A stretch of DNA of 35,228 nucleotides from the NCBI GenBank assembly GCA_964421545.1, contig CAYQXC010000001.1, positions 1 through 35,228 on the forward strand, given 5' to 3'. The translations under genes and the position numbers were made by a program. The notes below the pieces were generated by a model. That model was not told the DNA's origin and did no database searches. It saw nothing but the letters and a program-made list of their open reading frames with translations. Positions 4,813-19,901 of this stretch are shown here, piece after piece (position 1 is the stretch's first letter; every line of letters begins with the position of its first letter). This stretch comes from an uncultured archaeon. Lineage in GTDB: Archaea; Aenigmatarchaeota; Aenigmatarchaeia; Aenigmatarchaeales; Aenigmatarchaeaceae.

Positions 4813-5742
4813 ATGGGTTGGCTAATAAAAAAGCACGAGGCGTCCCTGACAGATTCTGGCTGTTATCCTGGGGCAAGGCCTTTAAAGGAATACATAAATA
4901 ACGGCATAATAATTCTTGACAAGCCTTCAGGTCCCACTTCCAACCAGATTGACAGCTGGGTCAAAAAGATTTTAAACATCAATAAATGCTCCCATGCAGG
5001 GACCTTGGATCCTAGGGCATCAGGAGTTCTGGTAATAGCAATAGAGAACGCGACCAAGCTGATGCCTATATTGCTGTCCTCTAAAAAGGAATATGTTGGC
5101 GTAATACACCTGCACGAGGACGTTGGCAAGGAAAAAATCCAGAAGGTCTTCAAAGACTTCAAGGGAAAGGTAAAGCAGCTTCCTCCTCTAAAGTCTGCTG
5201 TTGCTAGGAGAGTTAGGGAAAGGGAAATATACTATTTGGAGATATTGGAGATTGACGGCAGAAACATTCTTTTCAAGGTTGGCTGCGAGGCAGGTTTCTA
5301 TGTTAGGAACTTAGCTGTTGATGTTGGGAAAAAACTGGGAGTAAAATCACACCTGCAGGAGCTGAGGCGGACCAAAAGCGGAAGCTTTACAGAAGAGGAA
5401 ACAATAACTTTGCAAAAATTGAATGATGCGGTTGAGGAGGATAGAATTAAGGAAGTTGTTCATCCTATGGAAATAGCTGTTGAGACAATAGGGAAGGTGG
5501 TTGTTTCTGACACGACAATAAGCAACATAACCAATGGGTCTCCTCTCTATGTCGGGGGAATAAGCAGATTTGAGGACAACATCAAGAAGGGAAGTTGGGT
5601 CGGTATGTTTAGTTTAAAGGGGGAGTTGATCGCGATAGGAAAGGCTTCAATGTACTCCAAGGACATTCTCAAGAAAAACAAGGGCCTGGCAGTCAAGGTT
5701 GACAGGGTCCTTATGAAGAAGGGGACATATCCCTCAGCTTGA
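4813..5742 (+). CDS. cbf5: H/ACA RNP pseudouridine synthase Cbf5 (TruB family with PUA domain)
   Basis: HAGTLDPRASGVL catalytic-Asp motif. C-terminal PUA-like region. Conserved position after eL14. Confidence 0.9.
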   Translation: MGWLIKKHEASLTDSGCYPGARPLKEYINNGIIILDKPSGPTSNQIDSWVKKILNINKCSHAGTLDPRASGVLVIAIENATKLMPILLSSKKEYVGVIHLHEDVGKEKIQKVFKDFKGKVKQLPPLKSAVARRVREREIYYLEILEIDGRNILFKVGCEAGFYVRNLAVDVGKKLGVKSHLQELRRTKSGSFTEEETITLQKLNDAVEEDRIKEVVHPMEIAVETIGKVVVSDTTISNITNGSPLYVGGISRFEDNIKKGSWVGMFSLKGELIAIGKASMYSKDILKKNKGLAVKVDRVLMKKGTYPSA

Positions 5743-7722
5743 AAATAATCTGGCATGGTCTTTTGAATAATAGTAAATAACCTTTTTCTTGACAGTCTGT
5801 GCTCCAAGCCTGTTGATTATTATGAATACGGCTGCGGCAAATACGACTACAACGATTATTGGAATTATATAATTAAACTCCTCTTTTTTCTCTTGTGTTG
5901 TCAAGGTGTATTCCTCGGAGCTTGACCATTCACCATCAGTGTCGTTGACAAAGACTCCCCATCCTATGACAAGTCCTGTGGTAAGGTTCAAGTCCTTTAG
6001 AACCTCGACATAGTCCTCTGTTCCTGACAGCGGTGACCAAGAGTCGTTCGCCCATGTTCCGCTGTTGTTCGTGGAGAATATGAAGCCGGACAGGCCATTG
6101 TCATCCCTCACTTCTATTGTAAAAAGAACCTTCTCTCCTGCGACGCTGTTGTTTGCAATATGAGAGGAGTAGTAAGGAGGCGTGTTGGGAACAGGCTCCT
6201 CATAGCGAACAGTCAGCGCCATCTGGGATGTTGCTATTTTTGTTTTGCTGTCCGCCTTTCCAGTTGCCCTTATCTCTGTGTAATACTTTTTCACGTTAGC
6301 GTCTGAGGGGATTTCAAGATTTACTTTTACTATTACTGACCCTCCAGTAAGCAGGGCAGCGGGTATATTTTCCAATGTGTACCAGCTGGAATCAATGCCT
6401 GTCAAGCTGATTTGTATTTCAGTGATGGTCTCGTCCAGAGTGTTTGATAGATTGAAGGTTCCCTCTCCGCTTTCCCCGACATTTATTCTTGGGGATGAAA
6501 CCTGAGTTATCTTGAACTCCTTTTTGACAGTATCTTCAACATCAGTGCTTGATAGAACTATTATGGTTGCATTTAAGGACTGCTCCGAATAGTTCTGCGT
6601 CCCGTCAGTTTCGCAGATGTATTTGTAGGCTCCCACATCAAGGGTTGAGACGTCAGTCCTTGACAATGAGCTTGTATTTCCAATTAAAGTCTCATTCCTG
6701 TAGAGCTTGAAATCACCAATGTCAACCTGTCCCGTGTTGGAATAGCATGTTACCACTGTTGTTGTTCCGTTCTTGACCTCCTTATACGGAACGTAGAAAG
6801 TCAGTGCAAAGGCCTTGTAAATCCTGTAGTCCTTCTTAGTGGTGTTGCTGCCCATACCAGAGCCGTCCTTGGCAAACCACTTGTAATATATGTTCCTAGC
6901 TCTCAGGTCCGTAAGGTTTATCCAATATACATCACCATCATTATTAATCTTGGGAGTCGTGCTTGTCGTGTAGTTTTTCTTGGAGCCCGTAAAATTGGAC
7001 TCAAACTTGACCTCAGTCAGGTCCGCGTCAAGACAGTTTATTTGGAAGTTATATGTCCCGTTCTGGGAATATGTTGAGCTGTATATCGGGTCTGTGGTCT
7101 CGCCTGAGAATCTCGGAGCAAGGTTGTCAAAATAATGAGTTGTTGAGGAAGATGTGTAGTTCTCATCACCATCCCAGCTTCCTGTAAGAGTGAAAAAACC
7201 TTGGGAAGAGAGGTTCACTATTTTGTATATGACCGAGTTATGGTCCTCAATATCTAAACCAGGGTAATTGGAGTTCAGGCGAACAGTCTTTCCCGGCATG
7301 CCCAAATAGACAGTGAAGTTGGCCATCTTGTTATGCTTATAGCTTCTGTTGCCCTGTGTCCCGTTCAACATTAAGACTATGGGAACTGATGAGTTCTTTG
7401 AAACAGAGTAAGTTTCTGAAAAGGTTATGACATCGATTGTGTTGTTTACAAACCACTTGTAGGAGTAGGTTCCTGCTGCCAAGTCTGTTAGGTTGTAATA
7501 ATAAACATCAGAGATGTTGGTTGCAGTGTAGTTGTCTGCCTGGTTCCACTCGAAAACAACACCAGAGACATCTGTTATGTCATCCACTTTTATCTGAAAG
7601 CCATAATTTCTTCCTGGAGCGTATTCTGAGCCTGAAGGGACAGAAGTGCTGGTCTCAACAGCCTCTGCTATTATAACCAAGCTCAAAAGAAATACAAACA
7701 AACCCAACAAGAGCAATTTCAT
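5734..7722 (-). CDS. Large secreted, C-terminally membrane-anchored surface glycoprotein (S-layer-like)
   Basis: N-terminal signal peptide MKLLLLGLFVFLLSLVIIAEA. C-terminal TM IIPIIVVVVFAAAVFIII followed by basic residues. About two dozen N-x-S/T sequons and three internal repeats of a beta-sandwich-like module. Confidence 0.65.
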   Translation of the reverse strand: MKLLLLGLFVFLLSLVIIAEAVETSTSVPSGSEYAPGRNYGFQIKVDDITDVSGVVFEWNQADNYTATNISDVYYYNLTDLAAGTYSYKWFVNNTIDVITFSETYSVSKNSSVPIVLMLNGTQGNRSYKHNKMANFTVYLGMPGKTVRLNSNYPGLDIEDHNSVIYKIVNLSSQGFFTLTGSWDGDENYTSSSTTHYFDNLAPRFSGETTDPIYSSTYSQNGTYNFQINCLDADLTEVKFESNFTGSKKNYTTSTTPKINNDGDVYWINLTDLRARNIYYKWFAKDGSGMGSNTTKKDYRIYKAFALTFYVPYKEVKNGTTTVVTCYSNTGQVDIGDFKLYRNETLIGNTSSLSRTDVSTLDVGAYKYICETDGTQNYSEQSLNATIIVLSSTDVEDTVKKEFKITQVSSPRINVGESGEGTFNLSNTLDETITEIQISLTGIDSSWYTLENIPAALLTGGSVIVKVNLEIPSDANVKKYYTEIRATGKADSKTKIATSQMALTVRYEEPVPNTPPYYSSHIANNSVAGEKVLFTIEVRDDNGLSGFIFSTNNSGTWANDSWSPLSGTEDYVEVLKDLNLTTGLVIGWGVFVNDTDGEWSSSEEYTLTTQEKKEEFNYIIPIIVVVVFAAAVFIIINRLGAQTVKKKVIYYYSKDHARLFSS

Positions 7723-7766
7723 ATTAATATATAAGAGATATCATAAATTAAAAATAAGGTGAATAT

Positions 7767-7982
7767 ATGTTTTTGAGAAAAAAGAAAAAAACTGTAAAAA
7801 GAAAAGCGACAAAGAAGAAGGCCAAAAGAAAGACGTCAAAGAAGAAGCCAGCTTTCGGTGGCTACATGATAAAGCCGGACGCAAACTTTGCAAAGATAGT
7901 CGGGAGCAAGCCGTTGTCCCCATCACAGATGACAAAGAATATCTGGGCCTACATCAAGAGAAAGAAGCTTGGAAAAAGATAG
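7767..7982 (+). CDS. Small basic protein: Lys-rich tail plus the N-terminal half of a SWIB/MDM2-like domain
   Basis: KKKKTVKRKATKKKAKRKTSKKK followed by FGGYMIKPDANFAKIVGSKPLSPSQMTKNIWAYIKRKKL, which matches the first helices of the SWIB consensus (GG..K...LS..L...G...M.R.EV.K.LWAYIK...LQ). Confidence 0.55.
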   Translation: MFLRKKKKTVKRKATKKKAKRKTSKKKPAFGGYMIKPDANFAKIVGSKPLSPSQMTKNIWAYIKRKKLGKR

Positions 7983-8020
7983 AATTATATTTTTAATCGG
8001 AAAGTGCAATTTCTGTAAGA

Positions 8021-8028
8021 TTTAAAAA
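8021..8028 (+). promoter_or_regulatory. TATA box for tRNA-Ser
   Basis: TTTAAAAA is centred about 28 nt upstream of the tRNA 5' end at 8053. Confidence 0.5.
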
Positions 8029-8052
8029 TGTAGGAACATCTAAAATTCTTAG

Positions 8053-8207
8053 GCCGCTGTGGCAGAACCAGGCAAATGCGCCAGACTTGAGGACAAATGA
8101 TTAGATGGCTTGACTCTGATTAGCGGAGAATGAAGAGTGATAGGCGAAATGATGTCAAGTTATCTGGTGCCCGCAAGGGCTTGCAGGTTCAAATCCTGCC
8201 GGCGGCG
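8053..8207 (+). tRNA. tRNA-Ser(UGA) with a 70-nt intron at the canonical 37/38 position (8092-8161)
   Basis: Acceptor GCCGCUG/CGGCGGC. D stem GCA/UGC. Anticodon stem CCAGA/UCUGG with loop CUUGAG|..|A. Long variable arm GCCC-GCAA-GGGC. T arm GCAGG-UUCAAAU-CCUGC. Discriminator G. Oligo-T follows. Confidence 0.9.
8093..8155 (+). ncRNA. Candidate box C/D guide RNA embedded in the tRNA-Ser intron
   Basis: Terminal stem ACA/UGU (8093-95 / 8153-55). C box AUGAUUA at 8097-8103. 12-nt spacer. D' box CUGA at 8116-8119. C' box AUGAAGA at 8130-8136. 12-nt spacer. D box AUGA at 8149-8152. Confidence 0.5.
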
Positions 8208-8242
8208 CCTCTTTTTTTATTTAGAAAAACAAATAGAACTAT

Positions 8243-8590
8243 ATGGTATTTTTAGCTCAGGCCATTCCAACTTCAGTAGATTCAATTATCCCACTCATTA
8301 TTAACATTGGCTTCAACGCAGCGACAGTCTGGCTGAGCGCGCAGCTTGTCACAGGCAGCGCGTCATTGAAAGGCGCACTCATATTCTCTGTGCTGACATA
8401 CATTGTTCTCATTTTTTTGGCATTCATCCCCATCCCTACAATACCGATTGTCAGCCTTACAATCCTTGTCGAGGTTCTGATAAAGAGCCTCTTTGCCATG
8501 AAGTTCTTTGACACGGACTTCCGCAAGGGCATATCCATAGCGGGCGTGCAGACCCTGTTCGGCTTCATGCTTATTATACCCTACTTCTAG
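8243..8590 (+). CDS. Hypothetical integral membrane protein (3-4 TM)
   Basis: Hydrophobic 115-aa ORF with no recognisable motif. Confidence 0.45.
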   Translation: MVFLAQAIPTSVDSIIPLIINIGFNAATVWLSAQLVTGSASLKGALIFSVLTYIVLIFLAFIPIPTIPIVSLTILVEVLIKSLFAMKFFDTDFRKGISIAGVQTLFGFMLIIPYF

Positions 8591-12835: not shown

Positions 12836-13582
12836 ATGAATAAAAAACCTGAAACTATAGAAGAACATTGGGATATTTTATACAGTAAATATCCAGAAGT
12901 TTATAATGAACTTGCTGCAAGTGAATATGCTGATGGAACAATAATCAAAACTGTTAGAAAAATAGTCAATCTAAAAAACAAGACTGTCGTAGATATTGGT
13001 TCTGGTACAGGATTGTCTACATTTGAGGTAGCCAAGCATGCTAAATTTGTCTATGGGATAGAACCAGAAAAAGCTATGAAAGTCAAAGCTGTTAAGAATG
13101 CTAAAAAAATGAATGTCAAGAATGTCAAGTTCTTGAAAGGACAAGCGGAGAAAATACCAATGAAAGATAATTCTGTAGACGTGGCAACTGCCTTTACAAG
13201 TATTCCTTCTAACTACTCTGATTTCTCTAACATACCAAAGATGGTTAAAGATGTTGTGAGAGAAGTTTCAAGAGTCGTTAAGAAAAATGGTTATTTTATT
13301 ATAGCTAATCTGCCTCCCAAATGGGGCGGAGGAGAATTAGCACCTATTCTACATGGAAAAACCAGAGAAAGAAAGGGAAGTTTTGCTTCAATATTAGATA
13401 AAAGTCTAAGAAAAGGGTTCAAATACAAGGATATATTTGTTTATTCTAGATTCGGTTCATTAAAAAAGGCTTTAGAGGTATATGGATTCATTTTTGGTAA
13501 AAAAGCAATTTATTATTTGAAAAAACACAACAAATCAACAATAAAATGGAAATTCAGAATATACTACAAAAAGTTTGATTAA
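12836..13582 (+). CDS. Class I SAM-dependent methyltransferase
   Basis: Motif I VVDIGSGTGLST. Acidic post-I residue (YGIEPE). ..VDVATAF.. motif. Visibly more AT-rich than flanking r-protein genes. Confidence 0.7.
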   Translation: MNKKPETIEEHWDILYSKYPEVYNELAASEYADGTIIKTVRKIVNLKNKTVVDIGSGTGLSTFEVAKHAKFVYGIEPEKAMKVKAVKNAKKMNVKNVKFLKGQAEKIPMKDNSVDVATAFTSIPSNYSDFSNIPKMVKDVVREVSRVVKKNGYFIIANLPPKWGGGELAPILHGKTRERKGSFASILDKSLRKGFKYKDIFVYSRFGSLKKALEVYGFIFGKKAIYYLKKHNKSTIKWKFRIYYKKFD

Positions 13583-15394: not shown

Positions 15395-15484
15395 GGGTCC
15401 GTCGTATAGCTTGGTCTAGTATATACGCTTGGGGAAGTGAAATCCAAATTGTGTATGACCCCGGTTCAAATCCGGGCGGGCCCA
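15395..15484 (+). tRNA. tRNA-Pro(GGG) with a 15-nt canonical intron (15435-15449)
   Basis: Acceptor GGGUCCG/CGGGCCC. Anticodon stem UACGC/GUGUA with loop UUGGGG|..|U. BHB helix UUGG(15429-32)/CCAA(15444-47) with 3-nt bulges GGA and AUU. T arm CCCGG-UUCAAAU-CCGGG. Discriminator A. Confidence 0.85.
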
Positions 15485-15521
15485 CTTTATTTTTAAAACA
15501 AAATAACATTAATTATTTTAT

Positions 15522-19628: not shown

Positions 19629-19901
19629 GCAGGGAAACGCCTTTGGTGGGTGAGAAGAATTTACGAGGTTGATCCTGTCAACCTTCTCCACTTCGCGACC
19701 CCATAAACGTCACTACCATAACTTAGTAGTGCTCGGTTCCCCGCCTCCTACGGTTCGCTATAACAGCAACTCTATAGGACGAAGCTTCTCAGTCAGCCGA
19801 TAGGGCCTCATAGACTCTTGACATCGCCCTCGGGCTTCGATCGCGCCATGAACCGGATCTGCGCTTATAGGGAACCGGTACCTCCCCAATCTATCCCCTG
19901 C
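19629..19901 (-). ncRNA. Probable signal recognition particle (7S) RNA
   Basis: No credible CDS. The ends pair (GCAGGG/CCCUGC). The minus-strand segment UUAUAGC-GAACC-GUAG-GAGG-CGG-GGAA-CCG-AGCA-CUAC-UAA-GUUAUGG reproduces SRP helix 8 (GGAA tetraloop, symmetric loop NAGG/AGCA, asymmetric loop). A TATA element lies about 28 nt upstream (19925-19933) and oligo-T follows the 3' end. Confidence 0.6.

Follow-up and report, generated by a model that had tools for sequence, protein, structure and literature searches.

The 35,228-nt stretch analysed here (the window) is the entire NCBI contig CAYQXC010000001.1 of a Candidatus Aenigmatarchaeota (DPANN) metagenome-assembled genome (MAG), and it carries a tRNA-Ser(UGA) gene (8053–8207, forward strand) that, as read from the sequence, combines a long variable arm with an intron of 70 nt at the canonical position 37/38. 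The explanation that best fits our observations, to which we assign a probability of roughly two in three, is that this intron is a genuine nested box C/D small RNA (sRNA) gene, the D' guide of which would address the equivalent of Escherichia coli 16S rRNA A1408 and the D guide of which would address a second target. Considered separately, the claim that the intron encodes a real, conserved and functional C/D guide RNA is very probable, and the narrower claim that this RNA directs formation of 2'-O-methyladenosine at the A1408 equivalent leans towards probable.

The intron sits in a well-formed precursor. The 155-nt pre-tRNA-Ser scores 41.1 bits against the Rfam tRNA model RF00005 (threshold 29), with a 73-nt anticodon-loop insertion called, and its anticodon stem is CCAGA/UCUGG. 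ARAGORN makes no call for this gene in the window. The intron is bounded by a strict bulge-helix-bulge (BHB) motif of the hBHBh' type, and Rfam recognises the product of splicing as a tRNA. The original prediction, made from the letters of the window, had described a 70-nt intron with a canonical BHB that contains a complete set of C, D', C' and D boxes and two 12-nt spacers. A re-reading of the sequence bears out both the splice motif and the set of boxes, and every coordinate and string given for the intron is correct base for base.

Archaeal C/D sRNAs have the consensus RUGAUGA in box C and CUGA in box D, and these boxes form a kink-turn (k-turn) beside a short terminal stem. The intron reproduces this geometry, with an ACA/UGU stem followed by the 3-nt loop AAU (8096–8098), sheared G-A/A-G pairs (G8099/A8100), a U-U pair and then a U8102–A8149 pair that replaces the usual G-C pair of the C/D k-turn (position 6 of box C, position 1 of box D). 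The two deviations had been proposed to co-vary, and they do lie opposite each other in the k-turn. The U-A pair is kept in seven of the eight homologous sequences described below, and the same AUGAUUA...AUGA variant is present in Pyrobaculum calidifontis sR118, which was identified by RNA-seq (PMC4644070 Additional file 1). A search of both strands of the window with the box pattern TGATKA-N12-CTGA-N3-15-RTGAWGA-N12-MTGA returned a single match, where 100 dinucleotide-preserving shuffles gave an expectation of 0.00 (0.01 per shuffled window for a looser regular expression). A relaxed C/D scan found no further C/D sRNA in the window or in related loci.

We asked how this arrangement behaves in relatives, using homologous loci (L002, L003, L004, L009, L010–12, L013–15 and L016) found through the Cbf5 gene and the adjacent gene for a 662-aa protein. 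A pre-tRNA-Ser with the same intron occupies the same syntenic position in seven relatives on other Aenigmatarchaeota contigs, in which the neighbouring 662-aa protein is 43–77% identical to that of the window and Cbf5 72–91% identical. Both spacers measure exactly 12 nt in each of the seven sequences recovered in the scan; L004, judged by inspection, is laid out in the same way (box C AUGAUAU, box D GUGA). The box positions and the 12-nt spacing, the absence of which in relatives the original prediction had named as a refutation, are kept in seven of seven relatives. In L009 the 155-nt pre-tRNA is 100% identical to that of the window although the neighbouring protein is only 71% identical.

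Conservation is unevenly distributed within the intron. Across the eight sequences, 11 of 12 columns of the D' guide are invariant (mean pairwise identity 0.94), as are 6 of 7 columns of box C' (0.96) and 3 of 4 of box D (0.94). The corresponding values are 5 of 12 for the D guide (0.83) and 2 of 10 for the loop between D' and C' (0.57), the sole fast-evolving part of the intron. The core of the D guide, UGAUAGGCG, is invariant in seven of the eight homologues. For an alignment of these sequences (A3), prepared by manual deletion of the additional first intron of L016 and L004, base pairs were counted on a hand-specified structure. Standard pairs fill 98.9% of cells, five pairs are changed on both sides, and the covariation score of the structure was reached by none of 500 shuffles. 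The pair between position 5 of C' and position 2 of D' (A8134/U8117) is replaced by G-C in L003 and is A-U in the other seven sequences, which directly supports a C'/D' k-loop. The terminal stem ACA/UGU is invariant in all eight sequences, and three pairs of the tRNA-Ser acceptor stem show compensatory changes in relatives.

The D' guide points to a specific site in the small ribosomal subunit. Its positions 2–11 (AUGGCUUGAC) form ten Watson-Crick pairs with 5'-GUCAAGCCAU-3' in helix 44 of 16S rRNA (E. coli 1405–1414), and U8111, the fifth nucleotide upstream of D' (the N+5 position), lies opposite A1408 in E. coli numbering. The invariant block of the guide (positions 2–12) contains this 10-bp duplex, and structures of archaeal C/D ribonucleoproteins (RNPs) accommodate a duplex of about 10 bp. 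Two other candidate D' targets, 5S rRNA (GAAGUUAAGCC) and the 5' region of 16S rRNA (GACUAAGCCAUGC), were dropped in favour of the helix 44 match and the precedent that follows.

A search of the tables that accompany Dennis et al. 2015 (PMC4644070) located the core of the D' guide in Nanoarchaeum equitans sR13, listed there as GAUGAUGU-AGGUGGCUUGACU-CUGA-UUAG-UGAUGAG-AGGAGGUGAUA-CUGA (PMC4644070 Additional file 1). The D' guides of the window and of sR13 share 10 nt in the same register before the D' box CUGA, sR13 reading ...GGUGGCUUGACU-CUGAUUAG..., and the identity extends over 18 nt (window 8106–8123; UGGCUUGACUCUGAUUAG) that take in D' guide sequence, the D' box and the 4 nt that follow it. 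For sR13, Dennis et al. 2015 predict methylation of A1395 of N. equitans 16S rRNA, which is equivalent to E. coli A1408, and their 16S alignment gives CCCGUCAAGCCACCCGAG for N. equitans with the label N13 at the helix 44 site (PMC4644070). The helix 44 match is also present for 9 nt in N. equitans 16S rRNA. In the same data, the D guide of Sulfolobus acidocaldarius sR129 (AGUGGAGCGACU-CUGA) pairs with its own 16S sequence GUCGCUCCAC at the same site and in the same register (PMC4644070). The sR129 guide has thus changed along with its 16S target, so that guide and target co-vary between phyla.

A scan of the metagenome collection for GCACNCACCGCCCGTCAAGCCAT returned 120 loci, 41 of them archaeal-looking by the sequence that follows the match. 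One of these, the 39.9-kb contig L089, is assigned to Aenigmatarchaeota; the product of a flanking gene is identical to MBS3056974.1 [Candidatus Aenigmarchaeota archaeon], and the contig has a full-length archaeal small-subunit rRNA gene (Rfam 1090 bits) that contains CCCGUCAAGCCAUUCGAG and reads CACACCGCCCGUCAAGCCAUUCGAGUGAGG at the site. Position 1415 of this 16S rRNA is a U; guide position 1 is an A in L010, L013 and L016, giving a standard pair with this U, and a G in the window, giving a wobble pair. A perfect match of the 10-nt core in the L089 16S gene was obtained with 297 of 200,000 shuffled guides. Further GCACNCACCGCCCGTCAAGCCAT matches could be placed in Pacearchaeota, Nanoarchaeia, Micrarchaeota and Thermoplasmata, so the helix 44 motif is common in DPANN 16S genes. 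The original prediction had suggested that the targets may be rRNA and had named the lack of a genomic target with at least 9 nt of complementarity as a refutation; the D' guide reaches 10 bp with the 16S rRNA of L089, a contig other than the window, and the searches with the D guide gave no verified site.

Two side observations concern this site. The L089 16S gene (6257–8589, reverse strand) is 2333 nt long against a 1478-nt model, with many AT-rich insertions that break conserved segments and are probably multiple rRNA introns. In the window, a class I S-adenosylmethionine methyltransferase encoded in the ribosomal protein cluster (12836–13582, forward strand) has many generic matches, among them a sub-threshold one to the 16S A1408 N1-methyltransferase NpmA (20.5 bits against a cut-off of 60), which almost certainly reflects merely a shared Rossmann fold.

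The D guide is antisense to UUCGCCUAUCAC, which would be its expected target with the methyl group on the fifth nucleotide, a C. No exact 7–8-mer match to this guide was present in the 16S and 23S alignments of seven archaea. Nor was a site found in the L089 16S gene, the best match lying 181 nt downstream within a hairpin and at chance level. The 3' strand of helix 92 (H92) of 23S rRNA, directly after the A loop (UUCGCC(C)AUUAA; archaeal 23S UUCGCCCAUUAA; E. coli 2554–2565), forms nine of ten core pairs with one A-C mismatch and ranks at or near the top in four archaeal 23S genes, at approximately chance level. L059, which alone among the DPANN-like loci has a linked 23S gene, reads CCUAUUAA at this site. 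We hypothesise that a lineage with UUCGCCUAUUA would pair throughout with the D guide, which would place the methyl group on C2558. C2558, in the A-loop stem, is a weak candidate for the D-guide target. A scan of viral contigs for GCTGTTCGCCTATYA gave 108 matches, none of them in a 23S context.

A transcription unit can be traced around the gene. Upstream of the tRNA, the element TTTAAAAA may be the promoter of a transcript that comprises both tRNA and guide, and downstream a run of seven T, a T-run being found in relatives too, is likely an archaeal transcription terminator; with these two elements, the tRNA-Ser gene looks like a self-contained transcription unit. In the mechanism that we infer from the sequence, the tRNA promoter would transcribe tRNA and guide together, the splicing endonuclease would cut at both BHB bulges, and the exons would be ligated to tRNA-Ser. 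The freed intron, linear or circularised, would fold into a k-turn (boxes C and D with the ACA/UGU stem) and a k-loop (C' and D') and assemble with L7Ae, Nop5 and fibrillarin. Base pairing of the D' guide with GUCAAGCCAU would then direct 2'-O-methylation of the A1408 equivalent in the decoding centre, and the D guide would serve a target other than the D' site. The features concerned are collected in the table below.

Table. Features of the tRNA-Ser(UGA) gene and of the candidate box C/D sRNA in its intron (window coordinates).
Feature	Position	Strand	Basis or remark
Box A/TATA-like element TTTAAAAA, about 25 nt 5' of the tRNA	8021–8028	+	Sequence reading
tRNA-Ser(UGA) 5' exon, positions 1–37; anticodon UGA 8088–8090, G37 8091	8053–8091	+	Rfam RF00005
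BHB central helix, 5' strand CUUG (tRNA positions 32–35), then 3-nt bulge AG|G 8090–8092	8086–8089	+	
70-nt intron, putative precursor of box C/D sRNA	8092–8161	+	Rfam, sequence reading, homologous introns at 7 syntenic loci
Terminal stem ACA, pairs with UGU 8153–8155 (3 bp); both BHB inner helix and k-turn canonical stem	8093–8095	+	
Box C, variant AUGAUUA	8097–8103	+	
D' guide GAUGGCUUGACU, 12 nt	8104–8115	+	11/12 positions invariant in 8 homologues
Box D' CUGA	8116–8119	+	
D'–C' connecting loop UUAGCGGAGA, 10 nt	8120–8129	+	
Box C' AUGAAGA	8130–8136	+	
D guide GUGAUAGGCGAA, 12 nt, antisense to UUCGCCUAUCAC, N+5 = C	8137–8148	+	
Box D, variant AUGA; terminal-stem strand UGU 8153–8155 directly 3'	8149–8152	+	
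BHB central helix, 3' strand CAAG, then 3-nt bulge UU|A 8160–8162	8156–8159	+	
tRNA-Ser 3' exon, positions 38–73; long variable arm 8169–8180	8162–8207	+	
Run of 7 T, 3' of the tRNA	8212–8218	+	Sequence reading; T-run in relatives too

Several observations weigh against reading the intron as an rRNA guide gene. No target site for the D guide was found in the window or in any of 16 related loci, and in L004 this guide has decayed to GUAAAAAGUAAA, a loss that suggests it is less constrained than the D' guide. The central helix of the BHB keeps three of its four pairs invariant, and its second pair, U-A in five sequences, is replaced by a U-U mismatch in L003 and L016 and by a G-U pair in L004; in both L016 and L004 the 5' bulge measures 2 nt. 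The minimum free energy (MFE) fold of the window sequence (-56.2 kcal/mol) differs from the BHB fold (-49.2 kcal/mol, constrained) and pairs the D' guide with the 3' splice junction; the MFE fold of L003 is already tRNA/BHB-like, so this pairing is specific to the lineage of the window. The 16S, 23S and 5S rRNA genes and most tRNAs of the MAG lie outside the window, and L089 is a different genome that was retrieved with the target string itself. Methylation of A1408 is a published prediction only, for N. equitans and S. acidocaldarius (PMC4644070). Pfam scans of 28 open reading frames (ORFs) of the window found no gene for fibrillarin, Nop5 or L7Ae, and the searched literature yielded no statement on C/D proteins in Aenigmatarchaeota.

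Other points on this side concern the boxes themselves, and they are also what can be said for regarding the intron as an ordinary long intron with functionless, UGA-rich box-like strings, whether a chance resemblance or a decaying relic. Boxes C and D deviate from consensus, the D guide is degenerate in L004, and Rfam C/D models score far below threshold. The proposed check against such models did not produce a match to a curated family: in a permissive scan of 91 nt the top two hits are full-length alignments to the Pyrococcus C/D families sR18 (12.9 bits against a threshold of 45, E 0.42) and sR2 (12.2 bits), with E values of about 0.4–0.6. Both models are sequence-only and genus-specific, so a failed match says little, and the hits count as weak but consistent evidence. 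Against chance or decay stand the rarity of the box motif (about 0.00–0.01 expected per window), an intron that is fully identical between two contigs with divergent neighbouring proteins, the compensatory C'/D' change and a perfect 10-nt antisense match to a functional 16S site for which targeting by a guide had been predicted before. We consider this alternative strongly disfavoured.

Intronic C/D RNAs of the tRNA-Trp type suggest another possibility, in which the RNP would methylate its own host pre-tRNA, for example at positions 34 and 39 or their neighbours, before or after splicing. Such self-targeting is the one function that experiments have established for a C/D RNA from an archaeal intron (PMC4090602; PMC7994747). 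The original prediction had stated that neither guide complements an exon of the window; this holds for the D guide, which has no meaningful match, and fails for the D' guide, 11 of its 12 positions pairing with 8153–8164 across the 3' splice junction (the 3' end of the intron plus exon nucleotides 38–40), the pairing used in the MFE fold. This sole self-match selects A8157, an intronic nucleotide that is discarded on splicing, at the N+5 position. In L003 and L016, where the D' guide is invariant, the self-match falls to 8 of 12 with internal mismatches and the N+5 pair becomes U-U. The D guide reaches at most 4–5 contiguous pairs with any exon segment, and no exon site is among its best matches. 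Because the self-match selects an intron nucleotide and is lost in two relatives, and because the D guide has no exon match, we rejected methylation in cis, which is very unlikely.

It is also conceivable, if unlikely, that the RNA binds L7Ae, and perhaps rRNA, as a structural or chaperone element without methylation, helping the pre-tRNA to fold and to present its splice sites, or helix 44 of pre-16S rRNA to fold. Chaperone roles have been proposed for archaeal C/D sRNAs (PMC4644070). The stem of the k-turn doubles as the inner helix of the BHB, so binding of L7Ae could favour the fold needed for splicing, which in this sequence differs from the MFE fold. A role confined to structure during splicing leaves unexplained why an 11-nt single-stranded guide is invariant beside a drifting loop and why this guide is identical, in register, to a guide of another phylum. 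All homologues moreover keep spacers of exactly 12 nt, the geometry needed for placement of fibrillarin in archaeal C/D RNPs. A nested guide gene with a helix 44 target remains the reading that we prefer.

A comparison with known systems places the tRNA-Ser intron between several precedents. In Euryarchaeota, the C/D guide in the tRNA-Trp intron modifies C34 and U39 of its host (Cm34, Um39) (PMC4090602; PMC7994747), and the Pyrococcus sR50 and Haloferax volcanii cases are attributed to Omer 2000, Clouet d'Orval 2001 and Singh 2004 in the citing passages of these two papers. The tRNA-Ser intron resembles tRNA-Trp in having a full C/D-C'/D' guide within a BHB intron of about 65–70 nt at 37/38, and the euryarchaeal mode of expression, from the tRNA promoter with release by the splicing endonuclease, is the one proposed here for tRNA-Ser. 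It differs in its host tRNA-Ser(UGA), its DPANN lineage, the lack of host targeting, the match of its D' guide to 16S helix 44 and its U6/A1 box variant. A second precedent is the elongator tRNA-Met of N. equitans, the 66-nt intron of which contains a stable C/D-like RNA, where earlier only tRNA-Trp had been known (Randau 2012, PMC3491384). This RNA is likewise of C/D type and encoded in a non-Trp tRNA intron of a DPANN archaeon. The passage on it gives a GC hairpin, a box D and a mutated form of box C, and names no target (PMC3491384); set against this description, the tRNA-Ser intron differs in having all of the four boxes, both 12-nt spacers and a match to a defined rRNA site. With the precedent in tRNA-Met (PMC3491384), the case is less novel than the original prediction implied when it named tRNA-Trp, and the searchable literature yielded no report of a C/D RNA in a tRNA-Ser intron. 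The novelty lies in the host, tRNA-Ser(UGA), in the phylum, Aenigmatarchaeota, and in the class of target; C/D RNA in a non-Trp intron was already known.

The closest relative in guide sequence, N. equitans sR13, has a D' guide that reads ...UGGCUUGACU followed by CUGAUUAG and shares both register and predicted 16S target with the tRNA-Ser intron. Unlike the intron, sR13 is a separately listed gene at N. equitans genome position 318915, and in Randau 2012 an sRNA13 has its own promoter, provided that the numbering equals that of PMC4644070 (PMC3491384). Its D guide, AGGAGGUGAUA, also differs from the D guide of the intron, GUGAUAGGCGAA. The two RNAs, from two DPANN phyla, may thus exemplify relocation of a C/D gene, unless they converged on the same target. 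The arrangement further recalls the C/D snoRNAs encoded in eukaryotic introns and the dicistronic tRNA-snoRNA genes of plants, where a guide for rRNA is likewise carried by a host transcript, the processing of which sets its ends. In those systems the guide is hosted by a spliceosomal mRNA intron or a tRNA 3' trailer and matures through exonucleases or RNase Z, whereas the host here is a BHB tRNA intron spliced by protein alone.

These observations add a well-conserved intronic guide in another host tRNA and another DPANN phylum, with the small-subunit decoding centre as its best-supported target. They provide a concrete case with which to consider the movement of C/D genes between free-standing and intronic sites and the retention of long tRNA introns in reduced genomes. 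A more far-reaching scenario, which we regard as doubtful, is that an rRNA guide was captured by, or born in, the tRNA-Ser intron, that splicing is an obligatory step in its maturation and that it marks A1408 and maybe also 23S C2558. If this were true, a single excised intron would modify the two ribosomal sites at which the A-site tRNA is held, and tRNA and ribosome biogenesis would be coupled in a reduced genome.

The surroundings of the gene are those of a housekeeping region. The Cbf5 gene, the close relatives of which occur only in MAGs labelled Candidatus Aenigmatarchaeota, lies 2.3 kb upstream of tRNA-Ser, and the window also encodes SecY, adenylate kinase, ribosomal proteins, RNA polymerase subunit D, a class I aminoacyl-tRNA synthetase, aRF1 and the signal recognition particle (SRP) RNA. 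This last gene (19629–19901, reverse strand; archaeal SRP RNA, Rfam RF01857, 111.5 bits) shows no complementarity to the D' or the D guide. The gene for the 662-aa protein (5734–7722, reverse strand) overlaps the 3' end of the Cbf5 gene, and its product has no Pfam match. It lies directly upstream of tRNA-Ser in most related contigs, with one extra ORF call in between in L009; homologues with a source name are mostly "hypothetical protein", and the two organism-named NCBI entries are Aenigmatarchaeota MAGs. ORFs of 58–65 aa have been called between this gene and tRNA-Ser in L009 (3760–3945), L010 (4877–5071), L013 (8388–8585) and L016 (9731–9907), one of them with a weak SWIB match, while the tRNA itself was left uncalled by metagenome gene callers; these ORFs are probably spurious. 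The practical consequence is that tRNA finders miss such a gene (no call with ARAGORN, a low score with Rfam) and that MAG pipelines place apparently spurious ORFs beside it.

Further introns were seen in tRNA genes of the window and its relatives. The window contains a tRNA-Pro(GGG) gene (15395–15485, forward strand) with a 15-nt intron, AAGUGAAAUCCAAAU, after position 37, which ARAGORN mis-calls as 'tRNA-??? (gggg)' and Rfam misses at its gathering score. The orthologous tRNA-Pro(GGG) genes in L013 (1–75, reverse strand) and L016 (1275–1351, forward strand) have no intron, so the intron reflects a recent gain or loss. The tRNA-Ser(UGA) genes of L016 (9471–9659, reverse strand) and L004 (15502–15692, forward strand), two of the more distant relatives, are also missed by Rfam at the gathering score. 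Each contains a second intron of 35–36 nt after position 31, with the sequence AUCGUC(C/U)CAAGUUUUGAUUU(U)GAGAUGAUAGCGAUA; its 3' part, GAUGAUAGCGA, resembles the D guide sequence GUGAUAGGCGA. Genes for tRNA-Leu(UAA) have one to three insertions in L010 (4–179, reverse strand, 176 nt), L003 (18819–18947, forward strand) and L004 (19198–19330, forward strand), and the 31/32 insertion of the L010 gene ends in GCGAUA, as the extra tRNA-Ser intron does. The 37/38 intron of tRNA-Leu in L003 and L004 has a hairpin between UGAUG and GGUGAUAAG, and these flanking sequences could form a k-turn.

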